Of a stretch of 64,000 nt of DNA, positions 4,875-23,154 are shown one piece after another (the stretch's first letter is position 1; each line of letters starts with the position of its first letter). A program made the translations under genes and the position numbers. The notes beneath the pieces were generated by a model. That model saw only the letters and a list, made by a program, of their open reading frames with translations. It was not told the DNA's origin and did no database searches. This DNA comes from Candidatus Equadaptatus faecalis (lineage in GTDB: Bacteria; Synergistota; Synergistia; Synergistales; Synergistaceae). The stretch spans positions 2,552 through 66,551 of the forward strand of contig JAGHTZ010000023.1 in assembly GCA_018065065.1 (NCBI GenBank). The letters are read 5' to 3'.

Positions 4875-5278
4875 AGCGTTCAAGCAAAGAGCCGCGTAGC
4901 AAACGAAATTTAATGTTATACAGGAAAAAAGAACATAAATGTTGTCGCGCGTAAGTTTTTATTTACGATACAATGGTTTTAATGCTATCATGGTATTGTG
5001 TTTGGGCATGGCTTTTTGTGTTACATGTCAGAAAAAGCGCAAATGCTCTGCCTGCTGTCAAACGACAAAATGACAGCGGAATAGTAGGAGAAGATTATTG
5101 AAAAAATCTTTAAAAAATAATAACCTTGGATAATAGATATACGGGACAATACTTTGAACTGTACGACGTAACAGATTTGTAAATGATAGAAGCTACCTAT
5201 TTGCTGAGTACGTTGTGGGATAAAAATGTTAATTGAATCTGTGGTCGTTAAAATAAGTAGGAGTGGAGGTCTGTTACT

Positions 5279-6907: not shown

Positions 6908-7812
6908 TGCACTATACGCCGCTGCGCTATCCCGGAGGAAAAGCAAAATTATACAAATTCTTCTGTGGACTAATTGAAAATAATTTTACTGATGCACCAA
7001 ACTATGCAGAGCCTTATGCTGGTGGTGCAGGTTTGGCGTTGGCGTTACTCATGACGGGAAAAGTCAAGAAGATATATATAAATGACATTGACAGAGCTAT
7101 ATATGCTTTTTGGTATACACTACTGAATGAAACGGACAGGCTTATTGATAAAATAAAGACAGTAAATGTATCTCTTGAAGAATGGGACAAGCAACACCTT
7201 ATACAGGGAAATAAAGAAACTGCAGACATTTTCGATTTAGGTTTTTCAACATTTTTCCTAAATCGTACAAACAGGTCAGGTATCATAAAGGGTGGAATGA
7301 TTGGTGGCAGAGGGCAAAATGGTGTGTGGAAATTGGACGCACGGTTTAACAAGACAAATTTAATAAGCCGTATCAAGGCTATTGCTGACTATAGGCTGTA
7401 TATTAATATCAGTAACATAGATGCGTTGCAATTTTTGCGTAATATGGGCAATACTGGCACAATGAACACGTTATACTATTTAGACCCGCCATATATAAAG
7501 AAGGCCACTGGATTATATTCACACTCTTATGGTGATGCAGACCATATAAAAGTTGCAAAAACAGTAAAAACATTAGACGCTAAGTGGATTGTTTCTTATG
7601 ATGCAGAGAATATTGTTGAGAAACTTTATTCAGGGTATCGCCAAATCACATATGACTTGGGGTATTCAGCAAGAACTGCGCGAACAGGAAGAGAATTTAT
7701 GGCATTTTCAGTGGACTTGAAGATACCCGAAGAGATACAACAGGCAAAGAAAAATATCTCTATCCCTAATATGAGCAATATAATTTTCTGCAACTTAAAT
7801 AATATGATATAA
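6904..7812 (+). CDS. Dam-family (D12 class) N6-adenine DNA methyltransferase
   Basis: Motifs present are LRYPGGKAKL, EPYAGGAGLAL (AdoMet binding) and YYLDPPY (catalytic DPPY). ATG 6907 overlaps the TGA of the upstream ATPase (TGATG). Confidence 0.85.
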   Translation: MMHYTPLRYPGGKAKLYKFFCGLIENNFTDAPNYAEPYAGGAGLALALLMTGKVKKIYINDIDRAIYAFWYTLLNETDRLIDKIKTVNVSLEEWDKQHLIQGNKETADIFDLGFSTFFLNRTNRSGIIKGGMIGGRGQNGVWKLDARFNKTNLISRIKAIADYRLYINISNIDALQFLRNMGNTGTMNTLYYLDPPYIKKATGLYSHSYGDADHIKVAKTVKTLDAKWIVSYDAENIVEKLYSGYRQITYDLGYSARTARTGREFMAFSVDLKIPEEIQQAKKNISIPNMSNIIFCNLNNMI

Positions 7813-7850
7813 AGCGGGTTGAAATTTAAATTTAGTGAAGGTATGATAAG

Positions 7851-8708
7851 ATGATACAAAAACTTGATTTGTTTGCAAAAATGTATGAAGAAGCAATTAA
7901 TAAAGGAGATGTTAACATTGCCAGAATACACGAAGAATTGTTCAGTAGAGAACTCGAACATATTTTGTTAAATTACAACCCTAATGATATAGTTGAAAGT
8001 TTTATAGATATTATAAAACCTAAAACATTTCCTACTATTTCTGTTAAAAAAAATGAGATATTTTATCGTGCACGCAGGGGGCACGATACAGTAAGTGGCG
8101 CTATTGATGATTGTGATGGGACTTTTGTAATGCCACACCATGCGCACGATATTGAAAAAGTACCGCCTATGTTAGCACCAGGTGGGCGATTTAATAGGTC
8201 TGGTACATCCTTTTTATATATAGCATCTGATGTTCATACGGCTATAGCTGAAGTGCATGCACAGGTTGGCGAAATTTGTAGCATTGGAACATTTTGCTGT
8301 AAAAAAGATATAACACTTATTAATTTATCTGATAAAGCGAAATCACCCAAAATAAACTTGTGGTGTAATGTTATATTACAACCTATATATCCAGAGAAAT
8401 TGCATATATATAAACTGACACAATTTGTTACAGATGTATTTGTCCAGTCCGGAATGAGAGGATTTTATTTTAACAGTGTACAGACAGATACTGGAAAGAA
8501 TGTGGTTTGTTTTGCTAACGATGTTTTCGAGTTAGAAAAATACAGTGAAAAACTGTATTACATAAAAAAGGTTAGTTATGCTATTGAAGAATATAAAGAT
8601 TGGACTGAAAAAATAGACGTGAAATTGCTTAATTCGTATAATAGTGAAGAAGATGAAGAAAGAGATAGAAAAATAGATTATTTAGCAACTTTGGTAAAAA
8701 ACAAATGA
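7851..8708 (+). CDS. RES-domain protein (NAD+-targeting toxin family) with an N-terminal extension of about 70 aa
   Basis: The R-E-S signature is present: FYRARRG, GGRFNRSGTSFLYIASDVHTAIAEV and GFYFNSVQTDTGKNVVCF. No Xre-type antitoxin ORF lies upstream. Confidence 0.75.
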   Translation: MIQKLDLFAKMYEEAINKGDVNIARIHEELFSRELEHILLNYNPNDIVESFIDIIKPKTFPTISVKKNEIFYRARRGHDTVSGAIDDCDGTFVMPHHAHDIEKVPPMLAPGGRFNRSGTSFLYIASDVHTAIAEVHAQVGEICSIGTFCCKKDITLINLSDKAKSPKINLWCNVILQPIYPEKLHIYKLTQFVTDVFVQSGMRGFYFNSVQTDTGKNVVCFANDVFELEKYSEKLYYIKKVSYAIEEYKDWTEKIDVKLLNSYNSEEDEERDRKIDYLATLVKNK

Positions 8709-8773
8709 TATTGGCAGAAACGGAAGAACAGCAGAAAAAAATCATTGAAACTATAAAAGCCTGTTTTGAATAA
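8705..8773 (+). pseudogene. Remnant 3-prime end of an aminotransferase gene (right copy of the direct repeat, 8720-8773)
   Basis: It translates as MILAETEEQQKKIIETIKACFE*, compared with ...NKMTEEQQEKIIEVIKKCFD* at 1745-1798. Its TAA overlaps the ATG of the sugar transferase (TAATG), as expected for an ancestral coupled junction. Confidence 0.7.
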
Positions 8774-9486
8774 TGGAAAGAAAGATTACTTTTTACGAAA
8801 AATATGTGAAGCGGCCGATGGACTTCTGCCTTGCATTAGGTGCAATCATAGGCTTAAGCCCAGTTCTGCTTATCACCGCGTATCTGGTGAAAAAGAAACT
8901 CGGCTCTCCCGTATTGTTCAAACAGCCGAGACCGGGCAGAAACGAAAAAATATTCAACCTTTACAAATTCCGCACCATGACGGACGAACGCGATGAAAAC
9001 GGCAATCTTCTGCCCGACGACGTCAGACTTACGGACTTTGGAAAAAAACTTCGCGCCACCTCGCTTGACGAGCTGCCGGAGCTTATAAACATACTAAAAG
9101 GCGACATGGCAGTTGTAGGTCCCCGTCCCCTGCTTGTCAGGGATATGCTCTTTATGACTGACGGACAGAGAAAACGTCACAGTGTGCGTCCGGGGCTTTC
9201 GGGGCTTGCGCAGGTAAACGGAAGAAACAACGTTACTTGGGAAGAAAAACTTGCATGGGACTTGAAATATCTTAAAGGCATCACCTTTTGCGGTGACTGG
9301 AAAATAATTGGCGTCACTTTCAAAAAGGCGTTTGCGAGAGAAGGCATAAACACGGACGGAATGGACACGGCGGAAGACCTTGGCGACTGCCTGCTTCGTG
9401 AGGGTAAAATTACGCAGCAGGAATACGATGAAAAAATGTCTGTTGCCAAAATGATGTTAATGCAATTTGAGAACGGGAGAGTTTAA
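8773..9486 (+). CDS. Undecaprenyl-phosphate sugar phosphotransferase (small PglC/WbaP C-terminal-type bacterial sugar transferase)
   Basis: An N-terminal re-entrant helix is followed by PVLFKQPRPGRNEKIFNLYKFRTM and LDELPELINILKGDMAVVGPRP. Confidence 0.85.
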   Translation: MERKITFYEKYVKRPMDFCLALGAIIGLSPVLLITAYLVKKKLGSPVLFKQPRPGRNEKIFNLYKFRTMTDERDENGNLLPDDVRLTDFGKKLRATSLDELPELINILKGDMAVVGPRPLLVRDMLFMTDGQRKRHSVRPGLSGLAQVNGRNNVTWEEKLAWDLKYLKGITFCGDWKIIGVTFKKAFAREGINTDGMDTAEDLGDCLLREGKITQQEYDEKMSVAKMMLMQFENGRV

Positions 9487-10276
9487 TTTGAAGGATCTCG
9501 TTTCCGTAATCATGCCGTCATACAATACGGCAGAATATATCGGAGAGTCTATAAAGTCAGTTTTTGCCCAGACGTATGAAAACTGGGAACTGATAATTGT
9601 TGACGATTGTTCGACAGACAGCACGGACGGAATTGTTGCCGGATTTAACAGCGACAAGATACGCTATTTTAAAAACGAAAAAAACAGCGGTGCGGCGGTT
9701 TCAAGAAACAAAGCCTTGCGTGAGGCAAAGGGGCGTTGGATTGCGTTTTTGGACAGCGATGACATTTGGGAGCCGCTGAAACTGGAAAAACAGATCAGGT
9801 TTATGGAAGAAAACGGATATGCCTGTTCGTTTACTGATTACCGGATATGCTTAAACGGAAAATGGATGCCATATATCAATACAGCCCCAAATATTGTTGG
9901 TAAGGTAAGATTGTATAACTATTGCTACTTTTCAACAATTACAGTTATGTATGACAGAGAAAAAATAGGGTTAATTCAAATAGCTGATTTACGTAAGAAT
10001 AACGATTACGCCATGTGGCTGCAAATAGTCAGTAAATCCAAATTTTACAGATTACCTGAATGTTTGTCGTATTATATCAAACATAATGACTCTGTCTCAG
10101 GCGGAAGTAAATACAAGTTAATAAAATGGCATTACATATTGTTTAGAAAAGGCCTCAATAAAGGTAAAGTATGGTCTGCATTGCTTACTGTTAATAATTT
10201 ATTTTGGGGTGTTATAAAAAAGATTACTTACAAACAAACCACGGAGAGTAAAATCCCAGAATTATTCAATAGATAG
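9467..10276 (+). CDS. Family 2 glycosyltransferase
   Basis: VSVIMPSYNTAEYIGESIKSVFAQTY and IIVDDCSTD with a later LDSDD motif are typical of GT2. Confidence 0.8.
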   Translation: MRTGEFNLKDLVSVIMPSYNTAEYIGESIKSVFAQTYENWELIIVDDCSTDSTDGIVAGFNSDKIRYFKNEKNSGAAVSRNKALREAKGRWIAFLDSDDIWEPLKLEKQIRFMEENGYACSFTDYRICLNGKWMPYINTAPNIVGKVRLYNYCYFSTITVMYDREKIGLIQIADLRKNNDYAMWLQIVSKSKFYRLPECLSYYIKHNDSVSGGSKYKLIKWHYILFRKGLNKGKVWSALLTVNNLFWGVIKKITYKQTTESKIPELFNR

Positions 10277-10293
10277 AAGGAGAGAAATATAAC

Positions 10294-11616
10294 ATGTCAC
10301 TTTATCAGGATTTGCTGGACAGAAAAGAGAAATTGTCGCTTGTAGGGCTCGGCTATGTAGGTATGCCGATAGCGGTCGCGTTTGCGGAGAAGGTTGACGT
10401 AATAGGCTTTGACCTTAACGCAGCGAAGATTGACCTGTACAAACAGGGCTTTGACCCGACGAAAGAGGTTGGAGACGAGGCAATCAAAAAATGCAAGGTC
10501 GATTTCACGGCAGACGAAAAACGTCTCCGTGAAGCGAAGTTCCACATCGTTGCCGTCCCCACTCCCGTTGACGATGATCACAAGCCTGACCTTTCACCGG
10601 TTGAGGGCGCAAGCCACATTCTCGGAAGAAACCTTACAAAAGGCTCTATCGTTGTCTATGAGTCAACGGTTTATCCGGGAGCAACGGAAGAAATCTGCAT
10701 ACCTATTCTTGAACAGGAATCGGGGCTTAAATGCGGCGTTGATTTCAAAATAGGCTACTCCCCCGAAAGAATAAATCCGGGAGACCCTGTTCACCGCCTT
10801 AACAACATCAAAAAGGTTGTTTCCGGAATGGACGCGGAAAGCCTTGAAGAAATCAAGAACGTGTACGATTTGGTAATTGAAGTCGGGACTCATCCGGTTT
10901 CAAACATCAAAACGGCAGAGGCAATTAAGGTCGTCGAGAACTCACAGCGCGACATCAACATCGCGTTTATGAACGAAATGGCAATGATTTTCGACATCAT
11001 GGGAATTGACACCAAAGAAGTGTACGATGGTATGAGAACGAAATGGAACGCGCTCGAATTTACGCCTGGTCTTGTTGGCGGCCACTGCATAGGCGTTGAC
11101 CCGTATTACATCATTTACAAGGCGGAAAAAATGGGCTACCACAGCAAAGTCGTGCTTGCCGGACGTCAGATAAACGACAGCATGGGCGCTTTTGTCGCAG
11201 ATTCCGCTCTCCGTCAGATGGCGAAGGTTGGAAAAACACCGAAAACGGCAAAAGTTGTCATTTTCGGTATGACGTTCAAGGGCGACTGCCCGGACATACG
11301 CAACAGCAAGGTTGAAGATATAATTAAACGGCTGAAAGAATGCGGCATAGAGCCTGAGGTTGTAGATCCGATTGCAAACGTTGAGGAAACGAAACGCGAA
11401 TACGGCGTTGACCTCAAGCCGCTTTCGGAAATAAAAGATGCCGACTGCATTATCGTTGCCGTTTCGCACAGGCAGTTTGCGGAAATACCTGTTGAGCAGC
11501 TGAAAAGCTACTTTAAACCGGAACTGCCGGATAACGAGAAAATACTGCTTGACGTCCGCGGAATTTACGACGTAGATCAGCTCAGAAAATCAGGAATAAC
11601 GTTCTGGAGACTGTAG
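10294..11616 (+). CDS. UDP-N-acetyl-D-glucosamine/mannosamine 6-dehydrogenase (WbpA/WecC family)
   Basis: A Rossmann motif LVGLGYVGMP and the catalytic region GGHCIGVDP are present. The gene sits among WbpB/D/E/I homologues. Confidence 0.85.
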   Translation: MSLYQDLLDRKEKLSLVGLGYVGMPIAVAFAEKVDVIGFDLNAAKIDLYKQGFDPTKEVGDEAIKKCKVDFTADEKRLREAKFHIVAVPTPVDDDHKPDLSPVEGASHILGRNLTKGSIVVYESTVYPGATEEICIPILEQESGLKCGVDFKIGYSPERINPGDPVHRLNNIKKVVSGMDAESLEEIKNVYDLVIEVGTHPVSNIKTAEAIKVVENSQRDINIAFMNEMAMIFDIMGIDTKEVYDGMRTKWNALEFTPGLVGGHCIGVDPYYIIYKAEKMGYHSKVVLAGRQINDSMGAFVADSALRQMAKVGKTPKTAKVVIFGMTFKGDCPDIRNSKVEDIIKRLKECGIEPEVVDPIANVEETKREYGVDLKPLSEIKDADCIIVAVSHRQFAEIPVEQLKSYFKPELPDNEKILLDVRGIYDVDQLRKSGITFWRL

Positions 11617-11635
11617 AAGCATTAGGAGAATAAGT

Positions 11636-12718
11636 ATGTTGAAAGTAGTTTCTTTAGTCGGTGCCCGTCCGCAGTTTATTAAAGAGGCCGTGCTGAACAA
11701 AGCCATACGCGAAAAAAACGCATGGCAGCATATTCTTGTACATTCAGGACAGCATTATGATTTCAATATGTCAGGCACATTCTTTGACGAGCTTGGAATA
11801 CCAAAGCCTAATTATTATCTTGGCGTAGGCTCCGGAAGTCATGCAGTACAGACGGCAGACGCTTTAATCAAATTTGAGAACGTGCTGACAAAAGAGAAAC
11901 CGGATCTTGTGCTTGTGTACGGAGACACAAATACTACCCTTGCAGGTGCTTTGGATGCGGCAAAGCTGCATATTCCTGTTGCCCACGTTGAGGCAGGTCC
12001 CCGTACGTACAACAAACTGTTTCCCGAAGAAGTGAACCGCGTACTTACCGACCATATATCGGATTATCTGTTTGCCTGCACTGAACTTAACGTTAAAAAC
12101 CTTGAAAAAGAGGGAATTACAAACGGGGTGTACAATACGGGAGACGTAATGTACGATTTGTATCTTAAAGTGCAGCCAAAGCTTGACACAAAAGCAGAAA
12201 TGTCAAAATATAGTCTTGCTGAAAACGGCTACGTGCTTGCTACAATTCACAGGGATTTCAATACTGATGATAAAGCACGTTTTGAGACTATATTAAAAGG
12301 CTTGAACACGATTGGAAGAACGCAGAATTTAAAAATTGTGTACCCTATGCATCCGCGGGCAAGGAAAATGGCGGAGCAGTTCGGTTTTGAGGAACTGCTG
12401 AAAGAATTAATCGTGACAGAGCCGCTTGGATATCTTGAACTGATGTCGCTTTTGCAGGGCGCAAAGTTTGCTGTTACCGACAGCGGAGGTTTTCAGCGTG
12501 AGACCTACTGGGCAAAGAAAAGGGCAATCCTTCTCATGCCGCAGGGCTGGGAAGAAATTACAAGCACCGGCTGGCATCTTCTTGAAAACGGTGTTGTGTC
12601 TCTTGATTGGGAAGCCAAAGCGGAAGAGCTTCAAAATGAAATTGAATATCCCTGTGATATTTTCGGTGACGGCAGTGCAGCCGAAAAAATCGCGGATATC
12701 ATAGTGAAAGAGGTGTAA
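11636..12718 (+). CDS. UDP-N-acetylglucosamine 2-epimerase, non-hydrolysing (WecB/WbpI family)
   Basis: Conserved segments are VVSLVGARPQFIKEA, HSGQHYD, VYGDTNTTLAGAL, VAHVEAG and DSGGFQRE. Confidence 0.85.
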   Translation: MLKVVSLVGARPQFIKEAVLNKAIREKNAWQHILVHSGQHYDFNMSGTFFDELGIPKPNYYLGVGSGSHAVQTADALIKFENVLTKEKPDLVLVYGDTNTTLAGALDAAKLHIPVAHVEAGPRTYNKLFPEEVNRVLTDHISDYLFACTELNVKNLEKEGITNGVYNTGDVMYDLYLKVQPKLDTKAEMSKYSLAENGYVLATIHRDFNTDDKARFETILKGLNTIGRTQNLKIVYPMHPRARKMAEQFGFEELLKELIVTEPLGYLELMSLLQGAKFAVTDSGGFQRETYWAKKRAILLMPQGWEEITSTGWHLLENGVVSLDWEAKAEELQNEIEYPCDIFGDGSAAEKIADIIVKEV

Positions 12719-12722
12719 ACTA

Positions 12723-13856
12723 ATGCAGTTTCGTGATTTGAAAAGACAATACGCGGTATTGAAAAATGATATAGACGCAGGGATAAGCGAGGTAATAGAA
12801 AACACGTCGTTTATTTCCGGCAAAAAGGTAGCCGAGTTTGAAGAGCAGCTTGCGGCATACGCGGGAAGAAAATACTGTGTGGCGTGCGGAAACGGAACAG
12901 ACGCTTTGACAATGGCTCTTATGGCGTTGAATATCGGCAAGGGTGACGCTGTTTTTGTCCCTGATTTCACTTTTTTTGCAACCGGCGAAGTCGCCTCGTT
13001 CCTCGGTGCAGTGCCTGTATTTGTTGACGTTGATCCCGTTACGTTCAATATGGACGCTGCAAGCCTTAAAAAGGCAGTAGAGGCGGTCGTTAAAGAGGGT
13101 AAACTGAAACCGAAGCTTGTTATCCCTGTTGATTTGTTCGGGCTTCCTGCCGATTTTTCTGCGCTTGAAGCAATCGCAAAGGAATACGGAATGTTTGTGC
13201 TTGAAGATGCCGCGCAGGGTTTCGGCGGAGAGCGCAGAGGCAAAAAAGCCTGCTCGTTCGGAGACATTTCCGCAACGTCGTTTTTCCCTGCGAAGCCTCT
13301 CGGCTGCTACGGAGACGGAGGCGCAGTGTTCACGGACAACGACGGGGTGAACGCGTATCTCCGCTCCATCGCCGTTCACGGCAAAGGCACAATGAAATAC
13401 GACAACGTGAGAATAGGCTGGAACTCGCGCCTTGACACGATACAGGCTGCAATTCTTCTTCCTAAATTCAAGGCATTCGCTGATTACGAGCTGGACAAAG
13501 TCAATGAAGCGGCGAAGAAATATAACGAGCTTTTTGCAGGGCTTGAAAAATTTGTAACTGTGCCTGAAATACCGGAAGGATATCTTTCAAGCTGGGCGCA
13601 GTACACGGTTAAGGTCAAAAAACGCAGCGAGCTGCAGACGTTTCTCAAGGAAAAAGGCATACCGTCTATGGTATACTATCCGAAGCCGATGCACGAGCAG
13701 AAAGCCTTTGACGGACTTACTCAATATACTGACTGCCCGAATACGGAAAAGCTTTGCACGCAGGTTCTTTCCCTGCCTATGCACCCGTACTTTGAAGACG
13801 GCGAAATTGAGTTTGTTGTTAATGCATTAAAAGAATTTTACGAAGTACATCACTAA
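12723..13856 (+). CDS. DegT-family aminotransferase (WbpE-like)
   Basis: Conserved segments are GNGTDALTMAL, LEDAAQGFG and SFFPAKPLGCYGDGG. Confidence 0.85.
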   Translation: MQFRDLKRQYAVLKNDIDAGISEVIENTSFISGKKVAEFEEQLAAYAGRKYCVACGNGTDALTMALMALNIGKGDAVFVPDFTFFATGEVASFLGAVPVFVDVDPVTFNMDAASLKKAVEAVVKEGKLKPKLVIPVDLFGLPADFSALEAIAKEYGMFVLEDAAQGFGGERRGKKACSFGDISATSFFPAKPLGCYGDGGAVFTDNDGVNAYLRSIAVHGKGTMKYDNVRIGWNSRLDTIQAAILLPKFKAFADYELDKVNEAAKKYNELFAGLEKFVTVPEIPEGYLSSWAQYTVKVKKRSELQTFLKEKGIPSMVYYPKPMHEQKAFDGLTQYTDCPNTEKLCTQVLSLPMHPYFEDGEIEFVVNALKEFYEVHH

Positions 13857-13865
13857 AACAAAGCG

Positions 13866-14423
13866 GTGATACAAATGGAAAACAAAGATTATTTCGTTCA
13901 CGAGTCAAGCTACGTTGACGAAGACGTCATAATAGGAAAAGGCACGAAAATCTGGCACTTCTGCCACATTCAGAAAGGCGCGAGAATCGGTGAAAACTGC
14001 TCTTTTGGGCAGAACGTCAACGTTTCAAACAACGTGAAAATCGGAAACAGGGTAAAGGTTCAGAATAACGTTTCGCTTTACGAAGGGCTTGAGATAGAAG
14101 ACGGTGTTTTCTGCGGCCCTTCCTGCGTTTTCACGAACGACCTTACGCCGCGTGCAGAATATCCGAAAGGACACGAAGGCTATAAAAAAACGCTCATAAA
14201 ACGCGGCGCGACAATAGGCGCAAACGCGACAATAGTCTGCGGGCACACGCTCGGCGAATACTGCATGGTGGCGGCAGGGGCAGTCGTTACAAAAGACGTG
14301 CCCGCATATACGCTTGTCGCCGGCTGCCCTGCAAAAGCAATCGGCAAAGTTGACGAATACGGAAATATTACAATGAGAGTAAAACCCGAAAAAGTCAGTA
14401 TTTCCAGAGAGAGAGAGAGTTAA
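13866..14423 (+). CDS. Hexapeptide-repeat N-acetyltransferase (WbpD-like)
   Basis: 185-aa left-handed beta-helix repeat protein directly after the WbpE-like gene. ATG 13875 is an alternative start. Confidence 0.75.
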   Translation: MIQMENKDYFVHESSYVDEDVIIGKGTKIWHFCHIQKGARIGENCSFGQNVNVSNNVKIGNRVKVQNNVSLYEGLEIEDGVFCGPSCVFTNDLTPRAEYPKGHEGYKKTLIKRGATIGANATIVCGHTLGEYCMVAAGAVVTKDVPAYTLVAGCPAKAIGKVDEYGNITMRVKPEKVSISRERES

Positions 14424-14481: not shown

Positions 14482-15375
14482 ATGAAGTACAACGTTGGAG
14501 AAATTTATCCGCAGTTTGATTTTGAAATTACCGGAGCGTCATATACAGGCTGCCCTGTCGATAACACAGTAATGTTTGTGTCAAAGAAAGTCGGGCATCT
14601 TGTAGAAAATCTCAAAGGACACAAAAACTGTCTTGTGTTTGCCGAAAACGGGATAGAAATTTCTGAAGAAATACGCAGAAACAACGGTTTTGTTTTCACG
14701 GATAACCCTTCACTGGAATATGCGAAGTTTGCAAACATTCTTGCGGAAAGAGAATTTGAAGCCGAGAGAGCAAAAAAATACGAACTTGTTAACGGTTATT
14801 ACGTCGGCGAAAACGTTGAAATAGGCGAAAATGCATACATAGAGCCTGGATGCGTTATAGGTCACGGCGTTAAAATAGGAAACAGCGCGAGGATATTTGC
14901 AGGGGCAATTATCAAGAATGCTGTAATCGGGGATAATTTTTATTGCAACGAGAATGCCGTTATAGGTACGCAGAGTTTTACAATGGCAGATGACGAACAG
15001 GGAAATAAGTTACGTATTCCTGCTCTCGGCAAGGTGCTTATCGGCAATAACGTTGAAATCGGTGTCGGCGACAACATTTCGCGAGGAACCTGCGGAAACA
15101 CTATTTTGGAAGATTTTGTCAAGCTTGACGTTCTTGTTCACGTCGGGCACGACGCGCATCTTCACAAAAACGTTGAAATAACGGCAGGCTGTATAATCGG
15201 AGGTTTTGCCGACCTTGCCGAAAAAGCCTATATGGGCATAAATTCGGCGGTGAAAAATCGTAAAAATGTTGGTAAAAATGCTATGGCATGGGTGCGGTTG
15301 TTATTCGTGACGTTGAGGACAATAAAACGGTTGTCGGCAACCCGGCGAAGGAACTTATCAAGAAATGACGAATGA
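14482..15375 (+). CDS. LpxD-like hexapeptide acyl/acetyltransferase with a probable frameshift in the last ~30 codons
   Basis: Hexapeptide repeats run through the ORF. After ...VGKNAMA the reading frame gives WVRLLFVTLRT. The adjacent frame reads MGAVVIRDVEDNKTVVGNPAKELIKK* (stop at 15366-15368), which is the canonical family C-terminus. Confidence 0.65.
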   Translation: MKYNVGEIYPQFDFEITGASYTGCPVDNTVMFVSKKVGHLVENLKGHKNCLVFAENGIEISEEIRRNNGFVFTDNPSLEYAKFANILAEREFEAERAKKYELVNGYYVGENVEIGENAYIEPGCVIGHGVKIGNSARIFAGAIIKNAVIGDNFYCNENAVIGTQSFTMADDEQGNKLRIPALGKVLIGNNVEIGVGDNISRGTCGNTILEDFVKLDVLVHVGHDAHLHKNVEITAGCIIGGFADLAEKAYMGINSAVKNRKNVGKNAMAWVRLLFVTLRTIKRLSATRRRNLSRNDE

Positions 15376-15405: not shown

Positions 15406-16074
15406 GTGTCACAAAACATTATGTGGTTAACGAGGAGAGGATTCATTTTGAACAAAAAACTTTACGATAACATATATATGATATTTGTGATATATGTTAT
15501 AGCGTGCGTGAGTATTATTGCGTTTATTGTTTGGGGTTATGCGAATATTTATTATACACCTTGGGATACATATTTTCGAAGTAGTATAGGTGGGATATTA
15601 GGTGGTATAGGTGCATTACTTGCTGTCTATATTACGGTAAATAGTAATATCTATATACAAGAGCGAAATCGCAAAGAAGCAGATTTAAGGCTGAAAGAGG
15701 AAATTCAAAAAAGAGAATTGGGTGAAAAGAAAATATTAGTGGAAAAGCTTCGTAGAGATATATGTGAATATATTGTACACATAGCTGATTATCATTACGA
15801 TCAAAACGTTGTTGAGAATATTCATAATATCAGTGATACTACAAGAAATAATAAACTTGTAGCAAATGCATTGTATTTTAGCTTATTAAGCACTTTTGAT
15901 GATTTAGAAAATGCGGCAAATCTTGTAAGAATAATGAAAAAAATACACAATAATGCTGGACGAATGATAAATGGGGATATGAACTGGATTGATGCCGAGT
16001 CAATTAACTTTATGGAGGCGTTTGCAGATTTTTCGAAATGTTTTGTTGCAGATAATATAAAAACATGGAGTTGA
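15406..16074 (+). CDS. Hypothetical membrane protein: 2 predicted TM helices plus a charged/coiled helical C-terminal domain
   Basis: The hydrophobic helices are IYMIFVIYVIACVSIIAFIVWGY and IGGILGGIGALLAVYITV, followed by a KE-rich segment. The likely start is TTG 15448, after the RBS GAGGAGAGG. The gene is very AT-rich. Confidence 0.55.
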   Translation: MSQNIMWLTRRGFILNKKLYDNIYMIFVIYVIACVSIIAFIVWGYANIYYTPWDTYFRSSIGGILGGIGALLAVYITVNSNIYIQERNRKEADLRLKEEIQKRELGEKKILVEKLRRDICEYIVHIADYHYDQNVVENIHNISDTTRNNKLVANALYFSLLSTFDDLENAANLVRIMKKIHNNAGRMINGDMNWIDAESINFMEAFADFSKCFVADNIKTWS

Positions 16075-16103
16075 TATTATTAGTTTAAGAAACAAATGTA
16101 TGG

Positions 16104-17189
16104 TTGCCTAATATGAGAAAAATTTATTGTACTGACAAATATAAAGCTTATCAAAAGAATCGACAAAAAGATGAGTTATTGTATAGCAGGAGAAAGCATA
16201 TAGCTAATAATAAGTACAATCAGTATATTGAAAAGCAAAGATTAGCTGCAAAAATTAAATATAAAGCATCAAAAGTTAAATGTGATGATGAGAAACAAAA
16301 CCGTGTTAAACTAGATGCACCCGCAAATTTTTCATTAAAGGAAAATACTGCGGAGGTCTTGTTGTTCCTTAGTGGTCTGATTCATTATATAAATACGCGG
16401 CAACCAATTTATCTTAACTTAAAAGACGTTAATAACGTAGCAGTGGATACCTTATTAGCCATAGTTGCAATTTTTGATGCCAGGAATATTAGAGATGTAA
16501 GAGGTAACTATCCGGATGACAGAAATGCATACAGGTTAATCAAGGATTATGGTTTTTTTGATGCAATACATGCAAAATCTATATTAGATGTACATTCTAT
16601 GGATAGAAATATATTTTCAATTAAGTCTGGGACGAAGGCTGATTCAGGTATTGTAGATGAGATAGTGGATTTTGTTAATCTTGACAATATAACATACATG
16701 ATTGTAAAAAAAATGATATATGCAACGCTATTGGAAATTATTGGTAATGCCAACGAGCATGCATATAGTAGTGGTAATATATTTGGTTTGAAAAAAAATT
16801 GGTATTTGTGTGTGCATAAAACAGATTCATCGATTTTATTTACTGTTTTGGATAATGGGTTTGGCATAGTTAGAACCATCAAAAGAAAAACATCCGAAAG
16901 GGCAAAAGAAATATTTAGCATTGTTAGATATTTTGACAAGATTCAAGATACTGATTTGCTCAAAGCAGCGTTTGTAGAGTCTGGTCGCAGTGAAAGTGGA
17001 CATAGATACAGAGGCAAAGGACTCCCTACAATTTATAGGAGAAGTATTGTTAATGGTCAATTTACTGATTTTACGGTTATATCAAATAAGGCAATGTTAA
17101 ACATTGCAATGGATGGAACAATTATTCCAACAAACTTGACTGAGAGTTTTAATGGGACATTATTCTCATGGAAAATAATACTAAATTGA
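16104..17189 (+). CDS. GHKL-superfamily (HATPase_c-like) ATP-binding protein
   Basis: The N-box is LLEIIGNANEHAY, G1 is VLDNGFGI, G2 is YRGKGLPTI and the C-terminal motif is NGTLFSWKI. A basic N-terminal region of about 200 aa precedes these motifs. ATG 16113 is an alternative start. Confidence 0.65.
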   Translation: MPNMRKIYCTDKYKAYQKNRQKDELLYSRRKHIANNKYNQYIEKQRLAAKIKYKASKVKCDDEKQNRVKLDAPANFSLKENTAEVLLFLSGLIHYINTRQPIYLNLKDVNNVAVDTLLAIVAIFDARNIRDVRGNYPDDRNAYRLIKDYGFFDAIHAKSILDVHSMDRNIFSIKSGTKADSGIVDEIVDFVNLDNITYMIVKKMIYATLLEIIGNANEHAYSSGNIFGLKKNWYLCVHKTDSSILFTVLDNGFGIVRTIKRKTSERAKEIFSIVRYFDKIQDTDLLKAAFVESGRSESGHRYRGKGLPTIYRRSIVNGQFTDFTVISNKAMLNIAMDGTIIPTNLTESFNGTLFSWKIILN

Positions 17190-17194
17190 AATAG

Positions 17195-17530
17195 GTGATA
17201 ACAATGGTTGAAACAAAAATGATTAACATTGCTAAAGATTATACGGTAACACCTGGCTTTAGACTTAAATCACAGGGGGAGTACTCTGGAGAGGATTTCA
17301 GAATTAAGTTTTTGGAACCGATTTTTGAAAAAAATCCAGATTCTTTGGTAGTAGTGAATTTAGATGGAGTAAAAGGGTATGCGATATCATTTTTAGAAGA
17401 AGCATTTGGTGGCTTAGCTAGAAAATTTACTGAGATTGATTTTAATGAGCATATTAAAATAATATCTACTGAGGAACCGTATCTTGTTGATGATATCAGA
17501 GGATATATTCAAAATGCGAAAAATTGCTAA
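17195..17530 (+). CDS. STAS-like DUF4325-family protein
   Basis: GEYSGEDFRIKFLEPIF...LVVVNLDGVKGYAISFLEEAFGGL matches the pattern I recall for DUF4325 (an SFldEaFg motif). The gene lies 5 bp after the GHKL gene. Confidence 0.6.
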   Translation: MITMVETKMINIAKDYTVTPGFRLKSQGEYSGEDFRIKFLEPIFEKNPDSLVVVNLDGVKGYAISFLEEAFGGLARKFTEIDFNEHIKIISTEEPYLVDDIRGYIQNAKNC

Positions 17531-18074
17531 AACATACATACGCATAGGTTTACCTTTATTAACTATAACTATTTGTGCGGCTATATCATGGCGCAATTTG
17601 GAGGGATGTCGTTTTTGGGATATCACCTGTTCCACAATATTGAATATAATCTTTTTAGGTGGTTTTGTGGTATGGTTTACGCATATTAATAATATGTCTG
17701 TGCGTAGAATAGAGTTAATGTGTCAAAATATTGAACACCTTAAAACTAAGTATTTACAGATTCAGGACTTGATGTTAAAGGAAAGTTGCGATAGCAATAT
17801 TAACAGAACAACAACACAAAATGCTGTATACTTATTAAAAAGTGCGTATATATATAAACAATGTCTTTTTGCGTTGATTAGCAAAGAATCAAGTAGTGAT
17901 ATTATTGTACAATATATGGACGATGTTGAGAAACATCATACAGGATTGAGAAATTACATTGACATATATGAGGACATTAAAGATGATAAACGGAGAGAAA
18001 TTAATAACAAAATTGTTAAACATATTGTAAATATAATTAATGATGTTGATTTTATAAAGTTAAATATGTTCTAA
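17484..18074 (+). CDS. Hypothetical membrane protein: 2 predicted TM helices plus a helical C-terminal domain
   Basis: The TM helices are IGLPLLTITICAAISW and ILNIIFLGGFVVWFTHI. The likely start is ATG 17514, which overlaps the end of the DUF4325 gene. The architecture resembles the 15406-16074 product. Confidence 0.5.
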   Translation: MLMISEDIFKMRKIAKTYIRIGLPLLTITICAAISWRNLEGCRFWDITCSTILNIIFLGGFVVWFTHINNMSVRRIELMCQNIEHLKTKYLQIQDLMLKESCDSNINRTTTQNAVYLLKSAYIYKQCLFALISKESSSDIIVQYMDDVEKHHTGLRNYIDIYEDIKDDKRREINNKIVKHIVNIINDVDFIKLNMF

Positions 18075-19186: not shown

Positions 19187-20299
19187 ATGACTAAGGTCTG
19201 TCACGTTACGTCAGTGCATAATCGGTATGACCCGCGCATTTTCCATAAGGAGTGTACGTCGCTTGCAAATGCAGGATACGATGTCACATTGCTTGTTGCT
19301 GACGGAAAGGCTGACGAAACACGTAACGGAGTAAAGATAACTGCAATAGATTTCAAGCCGAAGAACCGCATTGACAGGATTTTACATTCCGGAGCCAAAC
19401 TTCTTGACAAAGCTTTGGAAATAGACGCGGAAATATATCATCTTCATGACCCTGAATTGTTGCCTCTTGGTAAAAATTTGAAACGGCATGGCAAAAAAGT
19501 AATCTTTGACAGTCATGAGGATGTTGCCGGACAAATTCTTGGAAAAAAATGGATTCCAGCTGCGTTAAGAAAACCGCTGAGTGTAGTCTATTCTGTTTAT
19601 TCCTCAGCACTGATGAAAAATTTTGATGCCCTAATTGGTGTTACGCCGTCATTGGTGGATAAATTGAAGGCAATTAACCCAATGACAGTTATGGTTACTA
19701 ATTACCCGATTATTACAGAGAATATTGCTCAAAAAATATGTAAATGCGAAAAACCGACGTTTGTATTTGCAGGTGGTATATCCGAACAGTGGTGCCATGA
19801 AATGATTTTAAACGCACTGGAAAATATTGATGTAAAATATCTGCTGATGGGATTGGCGGAAGAATCATATCTGCAAAAACTAAAAACATATCCTGCATGG
19901 GACAGGACAGAATATCTTGGAAGTGTACCTCATGAAACTGTTAAAGAAAAGTTGCCTTGTTGTTACGCCGGATTTTCCGTATTGCTTCCTTCAGATAATA
20001 CAGCCGGAAACACCGGAACGCTTGGCAACAATAAACTGTTTGAACAAATGCAGGCAGGACTTCCTGTAATTTGTACAGATTTTGTGTTGTGGAAACAGAT
20101 TATTGATAAATATCATTGCGGCATAACAGTTACGCCAACTAATGTTGAAGAAATTGCGAATGCAATACGCCGGCTTCTTGACCATCCGGAAGAAGCAAAA
20201 CAGATGGGAGAGAACGGGCGCAGGGCTGTAAAGGAAGAATTTAACTGGAATATTGAAGAAAAGAAACTGCTGAAACTGTATGAGGAAATTGCGGGGTAG
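19187..20299 (+). CDS. GT4-family (GT-B fold) glycosyltransferase
   Basis: 370-aa ORF with a C-terminal E-x7-E-like region (NKLFEQMQAGLPVICTD). Confidence 0.75.
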   Translation: MTKVCHVTSVHNRYDPRIFHKECTSLANAGYDVTLLVADGKADETRNGVKITAIDFKPKNRIDRILHSGAKLLDKALEIDAEIYHLHDPELLPLGKNLKRHGKKVIFDSHEDVAGQILGKKWIPAALRKPLSVVYSVYSSALMKNFDALIGVTPSLVDKLKAINPMTVMVTNYPIITENIAQKICKCEKPTFVFAGGISEQWCHEMILNALENIDVKYLLMGLAEESYLQKLKTYPAWDRTEYLGSVPHETVKEKLPCCYAGFSVLLPSDNTAGNTGTLGNNKLFEQMQAGLPVICTDFVLWKQIIDKYHCGITVTPTNVEEIANAIRRLLDHPEEAKQMGENGRRAVKEEFNWNIEEKKLLKLYEEIAG

Positions 20300-20303
20300 A
20301 ATA

Positions 20304-20603
20304 ATGTTTGTTCTTATGGTTTCAAGAGGCTATCCAAGCGAAAAATATTCGCTGCACGGGATTTTTGAATTTGACCAGGCAAAGGCTTTGGCAAAAGTCG
20401 GCTGTAAGGTCATTTTTGCCTGTGTTGATTTGCGTTCGCTTCGCCGTTGGCGCAAATGGGGCTATGAACGGCTGATTAAAGTCGGCGTGGTAATTTATGC
20501 CATAAATATTTCTCTTATTCAGAATACCAAAACTATTGTGTCATTCTTTGGAAAATTTATGGCGCTAATTGTTATACAGAGGGAAAGACATGTTATATCA
20601 TAA
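20304..20603 (+). pseudogene. Truncated N-terminal fragment of a glycosyltransferase
   Basis: MFVLMVSRGYPSEKYSLHGIFEFDQAKALAKVGCKVIFACVDLRSLRRWRKWG looks like a GT N-terminus. It ends after about 100 codons, where the AT-rich wzy block begins. Confidence 0.6.
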
Positions 20604-21963
20604 GTTTACTGATGACACAACTGCATTGAAAATAATACGGCTATTTGCAATAAAATATTTATACGTGTATCTTGCAATAGATATACTAGGTAAGTTGTGG
20701 TATTCGGGAACTTCCGGATATCAGATTGATTTTAATATTCACAAAGAGTATGTCGCGAGTGTAGTATTTTTTGTGTTGTCATGGTTGCATATTAGACTCA
20801 AAAGTCATAATAAGTTTACTGATACTGTTGTGCATATATTATTTTTGTTGTATTTTATCCCACTTAATAGTGCGTTTGCACTTAACAATTTAAGTTGGGA
20901 ATTTTTTGTATATAGTTCAGTTTATTTGTTTTTGGTACAGTTTGTGGTTTGTATACCATTTTATAAGACTGCCTCATATAGTACAGAGCCAGAATTTAAT
21001 TTTGCTGATGCGCAGAGACCAAATAAAAGAAAAAAATTACAACAGTTTTGCGTTTGTATGTGCATAGGATTTGTTTTTATTAAATTTATCTATAACGGTA
21101 TGTCTTTTACAGTATCCTTATCGGATGTATATATCTTAAGAGAAGCGAATCACCAGCGTGTATTAGCGATGGCAGGAGGAATACTGCCATATATGATAAC
21201 GGTGTGGCAAAATACCATAATATATGCGGTTTACTTTGGTATGTATTGTGCGTTGAAATACAAGAAAAAAGTAGCCTTGTTGGTCACGCTGTTATGCGTG
21301 CTTGCGATGTTTTCTATTGATGGCAGCAAGGCTGTCATATTTTTCGTCGTTGTTGTGTATTTTGTGTATTGGTGTGACAGAAATGGTATGTTAAATCGCT
21401 TTGATAAAATGGCAGATATTGGTTTATTGCTTTTTATGGTATTATGCTTGCTTATATATAAAGTGTGTGAAAATTTTTTGCCGTATATATACATTATCCG
21501 TCGAGAAATGTATATGCCTGCGTGGATTAATGGCATGTATTATGATTTTTTCTCAACAAATGCAAAATTATTATGGTCTGACCGCACTTTTTTGCTTCAG
21601 AGGTTAATAACATCTCCGTATAAAGAAAGTATTCTTGACATAATCAGCAGAGAATATTTTCATGGCGCAGTCCGAACTCCAAATACAGGAATGTTTGCTG
21701 ATGCATATATGCAGTGTGGGGTACTGGGTGTATTAATATACCCTATTTTGTATCGTTTGATATTTAAATGGGCAGGAAAAATATTTAAAGAATATGGGAA
21801 CGGAATTGAGGTGCTATTTGGTATTTTTTTAGCTATACAACTGACAAATATCCCATTACTGAATACTGGAATAATTTTAAGTCTCGTTTTTTTTGCATAC
21901 GTTGCGCATATGTTACCTAACGTTGTCGTATGTAAGCATAAAGATAACAAGAAGAAAGGATAG
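20569..21963 (+). CDS. wzy: O-antigen polymerase-like polytopic membrane protein (Wzy-type)
   Basis: More than 10 predicted TM helices, strongly AT-rich, and located between glycosyltransferases and wzx. The likely start is ATG 20590, after the RBS GAGGGAAAG. Confidence 0.6.
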   Translation: MLYRGKDMLYHKFTDDTTALKIIRLFAIKYLYVYLAIDILGKLWYSGTSGYQIDFNIHKEYVASVVFFVLSWLHIRLKSHNKFTDTVVHILFLLYFIPLNSAFALNNLSWEFFVYSSVYLFLVQFVVCIPFYKTASYSTEPEFNFADAQRPNKRKKLQQFCVCMCIGFVFIKFIYNGMSFTVSLSDVYILREANHQRVLAMAGGILPYMITVWQNTIIYAVYFGMYCALKYKKKVALLVTLLCVLAMFSIDGSKAVIFFVVVVYFVYWCDRNGMLNRFDKMADIGLLLFMVLCLLIYKVCENFLPYIYIIRREMYMPAWINGMYYDFFSTNAKLLWSDRTFLLQRLITSPYKESILDIISREYFHGAVRTPNTGMFADAYMQCGVLGVLIYPILYRLIFKWAGKIFKEYGNGIEVLFGIFLAIQLTNIPLLNTGIILSLVFFAYVAHMLPNVVVCKHKDNKKKG

Positions 21964-21972
21964 CAAAAATAC

Positions 21973-23154
21973 ATGAAAGTAGTTCATATAATGCAAGACA
22001 CGGCATTTACCAGAGATATCGTTAGTTTTTATGATGCTTTTTTTGATGTGTACGAACACGGTATTTTGTATTTAACGGAAAAAGGTTCTCCAAGTTTAAT
22101 TGACAGCACTATACATATTGGACAACAGGAGATTTATGTAGAATCTAAGAAGTATATTAAAGTATTTAACCGTTCATTTCGGTTTCCTCCATCGATATAT
22201 TGTGCCACACAGTTGGCAAAACTTATTATTAATCTTGATTGTGATTATATTGTTATGCATTCGTTGTTTTGTCCAAACCTTTTCACACAGTTTTTCCTGT
22301 CGCTAAATAAGGATTTTTTAAGAAAAATGGTATGGATTGCCTGGGGCGGAGATTTGGATACGTGGAAACCTTGCGGAATAAGAAGTATACTGATAAATGC
22401 CTTTAGACGTCTTCGCACGAAATGTAATACTGTTGTCTGTATTTTCCCTCCTGATTGTGACGTGTATAAGACAGCTTTTCCAAATTCACAGGCGCATGTT
22501 TTTTATGCACCGTATTGTGGGGCGGCTATACCTGAAGAGTATAAGTCCTATAGGTCGGTATCACGTTTGGAGCAAACAATTAAAGAAAAAGATTACGTGT
22601 TTGTGCAGATTGGGCATAGCGCAACACCGGAGCTTAAGCATATCGCAGTATTGGAAAAATTATCAAGATATAAGGAAGAAAATATCAAGTTGTTGATACC
22701 CCTTTCTTACGGTGATAAAGACTATGCAGACATGGTGGAAAAGAAAGCAAAAGAAATTTTTGGCAACAAAGCAGTGATACTAAAAGAGTTTATGCCTGCT
22801 CGCGAATATTTCGCTCTCACAAAACGTGTTGACATAGCAATATTTAATACATATCGTCAAATAGGATTAGGAAATATTAACAGGTTGTTGTTTAGAAATG
22901 TCAAAACTTATATGCCGGAAAATAGCGTAATGTATAATTATTTTACAGAAACCGGAGTGCCAGTTCAGAAATTATCGGATTTAGACAATATCAGTTTTGC
23001 GGAATTTTCAAAACCGGTTAAAACAAAGGACGAAGAAGCTTTTATGAAATATATTGATAGTCTTTCTGATAAAGAATTACACGTAAGGCTTTGGCAGAAT
23101 GTGTATGATGATTTACGTAACAGATTGTCCGAAAATAAAAAGATAAAGGAATAA
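21973..23154 (+). CDS. WecF-like GT56 4-alpha-L-fucosyl(Fuc4NAc)transferase family protein
   Basis: It aligns by eye with E. coli WecF blocks: VWIAWGGDL with WHIWGADL, IGHSATPELKHIAVLEKL with VGNSGDRSNEHIAALRAV, LLIPLSYG with VVVPMGYP, and YRQIGLGN with ARQQGIGT. Confidence 0.65.
   Translation: MKVVHIMQDTAFTRDIVSFYDAFFDVYEHGILYLTEKGSPSLIDSTIHIGQQEIYVESKKYIKVFNRSFRFPPSIYCATQLAKLIINLDCDYIVMHSLFCPNLFTQFFLSLNKDFLRKMVWIAWGGDLDTWKPCGIRSILINAFRRLRTKCNTVVCIFPPDCDVYKTAFPNSQAHVFYAPYCGAAIPEEYKSYRSVSRLEQTIKEKDYVFVQIGHSATPELKHIAVLEKLSRYKEENIKLLIPLSYGDKDYADMVEKKAKEIFGNKAVILKEFMPAREYFALTKRVDIAIFNTYRQIGLGNINRLLFRNVKTYMPENSVMYNYFTETGVPVQKLSDLDNISFAEFSKPVKTKDEEAFMKYIDSLSDKELHVRLWQNVYDDLRNRLSENKKIKE

Follow-up and report, generated by a model that had tools for sequence, protein, structure and literature searches.

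The 64,000-nucleotide window analysed here, from Candidatus Equadaptatus faecalis (contig JAGHTZ010000023.1), carries a block of four genes at 15406-18074, and three of these genes form a conserved module that we name K-S-M after its products. K is a GHKL kinase-like protein, S is a small protein of the STAS-like DUF4325 family, and M is a membrane protein with two N-terminal transmembrane (TM) helices. The K-S-M gene order recurs across about 60 species of at least ten phyla, which is far beyond chance. We propose, with a probability of roughly 0.55, that K-S-M is a horizontally acquired conflict module, in which a one-way phospho-switch like that of VapKSC would release a membrane-disrupting effector. 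VapKSC and CapK/CapS, the systems on which this analogy draws, are described by Chambers et al. (EMBO J 2026; PMC13373217).

The K loci were collected by scanning one genome per GTDB species with a degenerate pattern built from an 11-sequence subset of K, and 60 loci in 60 different species were obtained. The triad was found in Bacillota, Bacteroidota, Synergistota, Desulfobacterota, Planctomycetota, Acidobacteriota, Lentisphaerota, Hydrogenedentota, Fusobacteriota, and Nitrospirota. Its hosts include Oscillospiraceae, Ruminococcaceae, Lachnospiraceae, Erysipelotrichaceae, Synergistaceae, many Bacteroidota, 'Deltaproteobacteria', Pirellulales, Acidobacteriaceae, Victivallales, Hydrogenedentes, Fusobacteriaceae, and Nitrospirales. 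The gene for S starts a few bases after the end of K in all 59 informative loci, the sixtieth being uninformative because its contig ends at K. A gene for a protein of 145-225 residues with two TM helices (2TM) lies right after S in 57 of these 59 loci; the remaining two carry a degenerate version. At one of them (L011, 2116-2637) the third gene is split into open reading frames (ORFs) of 89 and 77 residues, and at the other (L016, 1653-2108) it lacks the first TM helix (TM1); both defects could be effector decay or an assembly error. Furthermore, the triad is present in the closest relatives of the window copy (K 38-41% identical), at the metagenome locus L001, on a Bryobacteraceae chromosome, in a prophage, and on the Leptospira interrogans plasmid p4. 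The order K-S-M also holds at loci L064-L071. M has homologues in the third gene of L001 (E = 0.008) and, by tblastn (E = 2e-9), in that of the closest relatives.

The first-pass annotation of this DNA had treated all four genes as one cassette. K, S, and the downstream 2TM gene are indeed conserved together, and the exception is ORF1, the first gene of the block, which has no homologue in the related loci. No further conserved neighbour was found at 58 loci, where the largest neighbour cluster reaches 6 of 58 with varying positions. Neither a phosphatase, a sigma factor, nor any other output gene is conserved beside the triad, at these 58 loci or in the window cassette.

Predicted architecture of the encoded proteins

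All genes and features of the cassette described below lie on the plus strand. K is encoded by ORF2 (16113-17189, ATG start, 358 residues). Its AlphaFold2 (AF2) model, with a predicted local distance difference test (pLDDT) score of 87.4 and a predicted template modelling score (pTM) of 0.84, consists of three parts. The N-terminal part is a basic helix (16113-16259, residues 1-49) rich in Lys and Arg. DSSP assigns helix to residues 8-49 of the model, pLDDT is 83-97 across residues 1-40, and the basic pattern is kept in the consensus of the family alignment. As modelled, this helix may bind nucleic acid. The middle part is a STAS-like α/β domain (16269-16676, residues 53-188), assigned from the AF2 topology, whose elements follow the β-β-α-β-α-β-α-β-α order of the STAS topology. 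A profile of this domain gave two matches in the PDB, both to STAS proteins (6ki2 and the SpoIIAA-like 4hyl), with weak E values of 0.3-1.9. The domain was also considered as a homologue of DUF4325, which is unsupported (hhalign probability 0.6%).

The C-terminal part of K is a GHKL/Bergerat kinase domain (16689-17186, residues 193-358), identified by Foldseek and by its motifs. The closest structures are those of the serine kinase SpoIIAB (1til_E, 1l0o_A, and 1tid_C; TM-score normalised to the target 0.66-0.72), followed by CheA P4, which agrees with the earlier assignment of a Bergerat-fold ATPase to the central protein. The N-box EIIGNANEHAY lies at 16734-16766, the G1 motif LDNGFGI at 16848-16868, and the G2 motif RGKGLP at 17010-17027. 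The three motifs that had been read from the sequence at first, EIIGNANEHAY, LDNGFGI, and GKGLPTI, are present, and they fall on invariant or nearly invariant columns of a 62-sequence alignment. In this alignment N212, H216, A217, D247, G249, R300, and G303 are invariant, and E208, G251, and G301 each reach a conservation of at least 90%. The score of K against Pfam HATPase_c (PF02518) is 14.2 bits, under the cut-off of 26.4, so the Bergerat fold was established by structure prediction instead. As single-sequence queries against the PDB, both K and S returned noise, and family profiles were needed. In sum, the set of ATP-binding and catalytic motifs in this SpoIIAB/VapK-type GHKL protein is intact, and K has a STAS-like domain of its own.

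The family to which K belongs is large. An exhaustive HMMER search collected 1845 clusters (50% identity) at E < 1e-3 and 935 at E < 1e-10, and the best 150 clusters are nearly all similar in length (257-394 residues). The only family that K matches is phrog_3364 (E = 2.7e-36), an unannotated family of phage proteins.

S is encoded by ORF3 (17204-17530, ATG start, 108 residues). The first-pass annotation had assigned a 111-residue product of this gene to DUF4325, and the Pfam match bears this out (E = 2.6e-13, 49.9 bits, cut-off 23), with a length of 108 residues when counted from the ATG. The 5-bp gap between ORF2 and ORF3 that had been noted at the same time holds with a GTG start of ORF3, whereas the ATG start gives 14 bp. 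PF14213 is present in all 92 S homologues. The AF2 model of S (pLDDT 96.5) has the order β-α-β-α-β-α, with helix α2 at residues 61-74. Eight residues (R20, G29, D54, G58, S62, F63, F68, and G69) are invariant in 60 of 60 operon partners, and the column identity of the family is 39-43%. The only invariant hydroxyl residue, S62 (codon 17387-17389), is also kept by at least 90% of the members in another set, of 71 sequences. It occupies the N-terminal end of helix α2, the site of phosphorylation in SpoIIAA and CapS. Position 61 is occupied by Thr, Pro, Ser, or other residues, so that S62 is the only universally phosphorylatable residue there. The resemblance to partner switching suggested earlier thus finds its counterpart in a SpoIIAB-type kinase fold next to a DUF4325 protein with an invariant Ser on α2. 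As a separate observation, S matches only the C-terminal ~100 residues of the phrog_5816 profile (441 positions), which suggests that some phage proteins carry DUF4325 fused to a larger N-terminal part, possibly as a K-S fusion.

M is encoded by ORF4 (17514-18074, ATG start, 186 residues), whose start overlaps the end of ORF3 by 17 nt. TM1 was called at 17535-17591 (residues ~8-26) and the second helix, TM2, at 17622-17678 (residues 37-55), followed by a C-terminal helical domain of ~130 residues that is predicted to be cytoplasmic. Two N-terminal TM helices are found in 58 of 58 members of the M family. Lys and Arg together average 2.5 per member ahead of TM1 and 1.2 within the loop, against 4.5 in the 20-residue stretch that follows TM2, a distribution that predicts an N-in/C-in topology with a cytoplasmic helical domain. 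Mean column identity in the family is 20%, so that its members are very divergent. No Pfam family (including PIN and SLATT), no PHROG family, and no significant PADLOC match was found for the 58 members, and one of the 58 gave a non-significant match to the PADLOC '2TM effector' model (E = 7e-4). A profile of the family matched only generic coiled coils in the PDB.

The remaining gene, ORF1 (15448-16074, TTG start, 208 residues), also encodes a protein with two predicted TM helices (residues 11-29 and 46-64). The TM calls thus agree with the first-pass annotation in giving both outer proteins two N-terminal helices, but the mutual similarity that it also ascribed to them does not hold. ORF1 and ORF4 align with E = 2.9 in BLASTP, and hhalign of ORF1 against the M-family profile covers only 24 TM residues. 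ORF1 is also unlike the M protein of locus L001, phmmer found no relatives of it among all ORFs of more than 60 related loci, and the reading of ORF1 as a duplicate of M was rejected for want of any BLASTP, phmmer, or profile similarity. Its 90% cluster is a singleton, and tblastn found no match in phages, plasmids, or the closest related loci. A weak match of ORF1 to the holin family phrog_20 (E = 0.0055) was observed as well. ORF1 shares the low GC content of the block (30-32%) and hence probably arrived together with the triad; it is a co-acquired orphan without an assignable role, outside the conserved system.

Genomic setting of the window copy and related loci

The four ORFs fill the block at 15406-18074 on one strand. 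Their starts were chosen from ribosome-binding sites and from agreement with the NCBI calls. ORF1 (KBS54_01680, MBQ0054841.1), ORF2 (KBS54_01685), and ORF4 (KBS54_01695) are 100% identical to NCBI proteins, and ORF3 is 100% identical to a Candidatus Equadaptatus faecalis entry named 'STAS-like domain-containing protein'. The earlier description of four very AT-rich genes on the same strand was confirmed, with a GC content of about 30% in the block and 43-50% in the flanks. Taken separately, GC is 26-35% inside the block, 43-46% adjacent upstream, and 43-54% adjacent downstream, and it steps sharply down at ~15.4 kb and back up at ~18.15 kb. Scans of all four proteins with PADLOC and NCBIfam gave nothing meaningful, and no sugar-metabolism domain was found in any of them with Pfam and NCBIfam. 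None of the four fits a PADLOC model, in line with the first impression that this is not a named defence system.

Pfam assignments of the flanks also verify that the cassette lies among sugar genes, between a hexapeptide transferase and a WbpB-like oxidoreductase. Upstream are genes for UDPG_MGDP_dh (UDP-sugar dehydrogenase), Epimerase_2 (2-epimerase), a DegT aminotransferase, and two Hexapep transferases; downstream are a GFO_IDH_MocA oxidoreductase (WbpB-like) and then GT1. These flanking sugar-nucleotide genes are of the WbpA/I/E/D/B type. No intrinsic terminator was found on the plus strand across the cassette region, and the cassette is probably co-transcribed with the glycan operon, in which its position looks incidental. 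A search for terminal repeats and target-site duplications around the cassette gave nothing convincing, and no integrase or phage gene lies near the window copy.

Some further features of the glycan locus were noted. Its parts at 4000-9000 and 20000-23000 of the window are likewise GC-poor (33-37%), and the latter contains a 464-residue multi-TM ORF (20569-21963) without a Pfam match, presumably a Wzy-like polymerase. The hexapeptide-transferase ORF just upstream of the cassette (14482-15375, 297 residues) ends in an odd Arg-rich tail. With a frameshift near 15280-15290, another frame, ending at 15368, reads GMGAVVIRDVEDNKTVVGNPAKELIKK*, the canonical C-terminus of left-handed β-helix acyltransferases; the tail is either an indel error of the metagenome-assembled genome or a genuine frameshift.

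The neighbourhoods of the related loci were scanned with Pfam and PADLOC on the 260 nearest genes (at most three per side) of 58 loci, and the counts are totals over all of these loci. Restriction-modification (R-M) genes include type I methyltransferases (4), type I S subunits (3), and type II/IIG enzymes (AccI, DpnII, MmeI, and Eco57I-like). Other defence-type neighbours are ThsB-TIR, SoFic/Fic (4), AbiEii-like AAA_21 (3), and AAA_13, and RhuM (2), DUF4145 (2), and PDC-S04/S05 candidates were also recorded. Mobility genes are represented by serine recombinases (4), tyrosine integrases (4), and IS110/Mutator transposases. Collectively, the neighbourhoods and the carriage described below are consistent with a conflict module that is mobile.

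On more than 24 contigs, a prophage carries the triad between a CI-like repressor (plus a PBECR2/PBECR3 gene) and a serine integrase. In loci L064-L067 (~5600-10500) the order is CI-like repressor (HTH_3 + Peptidase_S24), PBECR2/PBECR3 nuclease-like gene, K-S-M, and serine integrase, and the variant L067 has an extra Abi_2 gene past the integrase. The interval between repressor and integrase is the usual place of 'morons', defence genes expressed during lysogeny. In the same position, Francisella phage KIRK encodes a similar trio of a 293-residue protein, a 112-residue DUF4325 protein, and a 125-residue TM protein. On the L. interrogans plasmid p4 (NZ_CP043897; L072), the triad at 5977-8779 is annotated as 'ATP-binding protein / STAS-like domain-containing protein / hypothetical protein' and is followed directly by an MNT/HepT toxin-antitoxin (TA) pair, that is, a nucleotidyltransferase and a HepT RNase. 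Searched with tblastn, K itself had no match in the phage collection and, among plasmids, matched only this Leptospira copy.

Locus L001 offers a side view of such surroundings. In the stretches at 10222-13974 and 16102-17041 of this locus, genes for an AAA_13 ATPase (773 residues) and a DUF3800 protein come directly past the triad, and an HTH_3/Peptidase_M78 gene follows beyond them. Upstream are glycosyltransferase and acyltransferase genes, so that a defence-island-like stretch lies by glycan genes, as in the window.

A candidate membrane switch and its alternatives

A membrane effector controlled by a phospho-switch is, at slightly better than even odds, the reading that we consider best supported, by analogy with VapKSC. 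In the resting cell, unphosphorylated S would bind the cytoplasmic domain of M and, as an antitoxin, keep M inactive. A cue from infection or stress would activate K, possibly through nucleic acid at the STAS/GHKL interface as in CapK/VapK, and the basic N-terminal helix of K would perhaps help in sensing. Active K would then phosphorylate S on Ser62, phospho-S would dissociate, and M would oligomerise or open, depolarising the membrane. Growth arrest or death would follow before phage release, as abortive infection, or as superinfection exclusion when the module resides on a prophage. Since there is no phosphatase, the switch is proposed to run one way. A more specific version, which we hold tentatively and at less than even odds, is that K-S-M is a widespread, unnamed anti-phage abortive-infection system, in which Ser phosphorylation of S gates a new family of pore-forming 2TM proteins and the trigger is perhaps other than single-stranded DNA (ssDNA). 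Under abortive infection, the trigger may be sensed via the STAS-like domain of K together with its basic N-terminal helix.

Several points weigh against a switch-controlled membrane effector. The toxicity of M, its binding by S, and the phosphorylation of S are all drawn by analogy, and the opposite polarity, with phospho-S activating M, may apply. The 58 members of the M family bear no likeness to known pore-forming or defence effectors. The STAS-like fold proposed at first for S stands on the family assignment and the predicted topology, but Foldseek of S against the PDB gave no significant STAS match (RsbS and SLC26 STAS at E = 0.3-0.7); the assignment thus draws on its Pfam family, its topology, and the alignment with VapS. 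That alignment is itself weak, as VapS (9z7o) matches the S family with a profile E of 0.25 and an hhalign probability of 39% (E = 3e-4). The STAS domains of K and VapK cannot be aligned, so the ssDNA-sensing residue cannot be located in K and the trigger may differ. Many ordinary metabolic and housekeeping genes are also found among the neighbours of K-S-M loci. Of the defence-island context that had been anticipated, R-M, Abi, and TA neighbours and prophages were observed, alongside housekeeping surroundings at many loci. Finally, the glycan locus of the window is compositionally mosaic, and low GC alone is therefore no proof of recent insertion.

The same observations were examined under other explanations. 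K-S-M could be an envelope-signalling module, a minimal pathway of partner switching that answers to stress of the membrane or envelope, with M as a sensor or anchor that recruits or regulates K and with phospho-S or free S acting on an unlinked target. Pairs of a GHKL kinase and a STAS protein are classically regulatory, as the SpoIIAB-like fold recalls, M has no recognisable toxin domain, some loci lie amid housekeeping, transporter, or two-component genes, and a few copies, that of the window among them, lie within glycan clusters. However, the neighbourhood offers no conserved target, sigma factor, or phosphatase, and the module is patchy across many phyla, occurs on prophages and plasmids, and adjoins R-M, Abi, and TA genes. 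M also diverges extremely fast (20%) beside the well-kept S (39-43%), as is typical of conflict effectors, and we consider envelope signalling unlikely. A role in the local glycan pathway, by which the cassette would regulate or modify the synthesis or export of a polymer of 2,3-diacetamido-uronic-acid-type sugar, draws on the arrangement in the window, where the cassette runs on the same strand as the genes on either side of it (those for the hexapeptide transferase and the WbpB-like oxidoreductase), gaps measure 27-80 bp, and a terminator is lacking, and on L001 and about two other loci near glycan genes. Against it stand the GC content of ~30% versus 43-54% in the flanks, the lack of any glycan gene conserved by the triad across the 58 loci, and four proteins without a sugar-metabolism domain. 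Surface-glycan loci are, moreover, hot spots for horizontal insertion. Given the foreign composition and the absence of a glycan linkage elsewhere, such a role is very improbable.

The module might instead serve its carrier, as an addiction or superinfection-exclusion device that stabilises prophages and plasmids or benefits the carrying phage rather than providing general host defence. Its action could then be post-segregational killing, exclusion of rivals, or the timing of lysis with M as a holin-like protein. The membership of K in a PHROG family accords with this, as do the triad at the CI repressor-integrase site of the prophage on more than 24 contigs, the similar arrangement in Francisella phage KIRK, and the Leptospira plasmid copy beside another TA pair; the weak holin-profile match (E = 0.0055) concerns ORF1 alone. 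Within 6 kb of most of the 60 loci, however, neither phage structural genes nor plasmid genes are seen, integrases and phage genes are likewise missing around the window copy, and M matches no holin or other PHROG. We therefore rate service to the carrier as rather improbable, although it overlaps mechanistically with a conflict module that releases a membrane effector.

Relation to VapKSC, CapKS and other switch systems

In CapKS, CapK has an HTH-STAS-GHKL architecture and CapS a STAS-wHTH architecture, with a helix-turn-helix (HTH) or winged HTH (wHTH), respectively (PMC13373217). CapK activated by ssDNA phosphorylates CapS at Ser54 on α2, and adjacent immune operons are de-repressed (PMC13373217). 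VapKSC is a three-gene operon in which VapK (STAS-GHKL) is the proposed kinase of the antitoxin VapS, acting on Ser48 and so freeing the PIN toxin VapC; VapS neutralises VapC, and the substitution S48E abolishes neutralisation (PMC13373217). The operon guards E. coli against phage Bas42, and defence genes lie within 10 kb of VapKSC in 36% (PMC13373217). The ssDNA-sensing aromatic residue at the STAS/GHKL interface is F54 in VapK and W68 in CapK (PMC13373217). A membrane effector is not mentioned in PMC13373217, and full-text searches of the literature library used found no earlier description of a GHKL-STAS-TM triad.

K-S-M shares with VapKSC the order of kinase, STAS protein, and effector, as well as a kinase made of a STAS domain and a SpoIIAB-like GHKL domain. 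With the VapK and VapS sequences taken from the AlphaFold3 model file of PMC13373217, VapK 122-289 aligned with the K family at 180-356 (hhalign 95.9%, E = 6.4e-9), which spans the whole GHKL domain and leaves out STAS; no sequence alignment was found between the STAS part of VapK and the STAS-like domain of K. The two GHKL domains have motifs in common past the generic Bergerat set, namely DxGxGIPxxVR and a C-terminal FxGT. S is VapS-like in being a DUF4325/STAS protein of ~110 residues whose Ser at the beginning of α2 never varies. The alignment of VapS with S covers the β3-α2 core and places S48 of VapS at position 61, one before S62. Moreover, a VapS fragment matches a DUF4325-annotated protein, and PIN.4 VapC genes occur coupled to DUF4325. 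The same fragment had no match in a word-indexed protein search, and plasmids yielded only a degenerate DUF4325 fragment in Leptotrichia. Like K-S-M, VapKSC has no phosphatase and is patchily distributed. Defence genes often lie by VapKSC, and they also occur among the neighbours of K-S-M loci. The two differ in the third product, which is the VapC/PIN RNase in VapKSC and a 2TM protein of a new family, the candidate effector, in K-S-M, and in the extra basic N-terminal helix of ~50 residues that K has and VapK lacks. As the third gene encodes a 2TM protein and no PIN domain in 58 members, K-S-M is not a member of VapKSC and would share only its logic.

CapKS likewise couples a STAS-GHKL kinase to a following STAS substrate with a conserved Ser on α2, the pair is tied to defence loci, and phosphorylation of CapS switches its binding partner. 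The N-box Asn N212 of K, invariant in the family, is equivalent to N218 of CapK. CapS, however, has a wHTH and represses transcription, whereas S consists of STAS only, and the HTH at the N-terminus of CapK is replaced in K by a single long basic helix. CapKS precede varied immune operons, while K-S is followed by one fixed small membrane gene. The SpoIIAB-SpoIIAA and RsbW-RsbV pairs also combine a GHKL serine kinase with a STAS substrate that is phosphorylated at the N-terminus of α2. These pairs have a sigma factor as target and a PP2C phosphatase, and K-S-M has neither; its kinase in turn gains the STAS-like domain and the N-terminal helix. They are core regulators, in contrast to the mobile and patchy K-S-M.

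On the effector side, M resembles the CBASS 2TM/Cap14-type, Pycsar PycTM, and SLATT proteins in being short, with two N-terminal TM helices and a soluble helical part. Those effectors are also encoded last in a sensor or switch operon and are presumed to disrupt membranes. M has no sequence relationship to them, and its activation would be a release after phosphorylation, whereas the CBASS and Pycsar effectors use a nucleotide second messenger.

If the proposal is correct, a phospho-switch of GHKL kinase and STAS protein would drive a membrane effector, in addition to transcription in CapKS and an RNase toxin in VapKSC, and the K-S pair would be a general, modular 'sensor-switch' cassette of prokaryotic immunity. 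Partner switching of the anti-sigma-factor type would thereby extend to direct post-translational control of membrane integrity, and annotation pipelines would gain one defence system and one effector family, both of them new. PADLOC v2 does not cover the K family, whose members occur in Bacillota and Bacteroidota of the gut, in soil Acidobacteriota, in Synergistota and Planctomycetota, and in pathogenic Leptospira. Cultured carriers include Capnocytophaga granulosa ATCC 51502, Hymenobacter qilianensis JCM 19763, Salegentibacter salarius DSM 23401, and L. interrogans with plasmid p4. The window copy also calls for caution, in that a defence-type module can lie in the middle of a surface-glycan operon, apparently co-transcribed with it.

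In conclusion, K-S-M looks like an undescribed membrane-effector cousin of VapKSC, as judged by analogy. Since its switch has characterised relatives in CapK/CapS and VapKSC, the module would be not a categorically new system but one in which a known logic is joined to a new class of effector.

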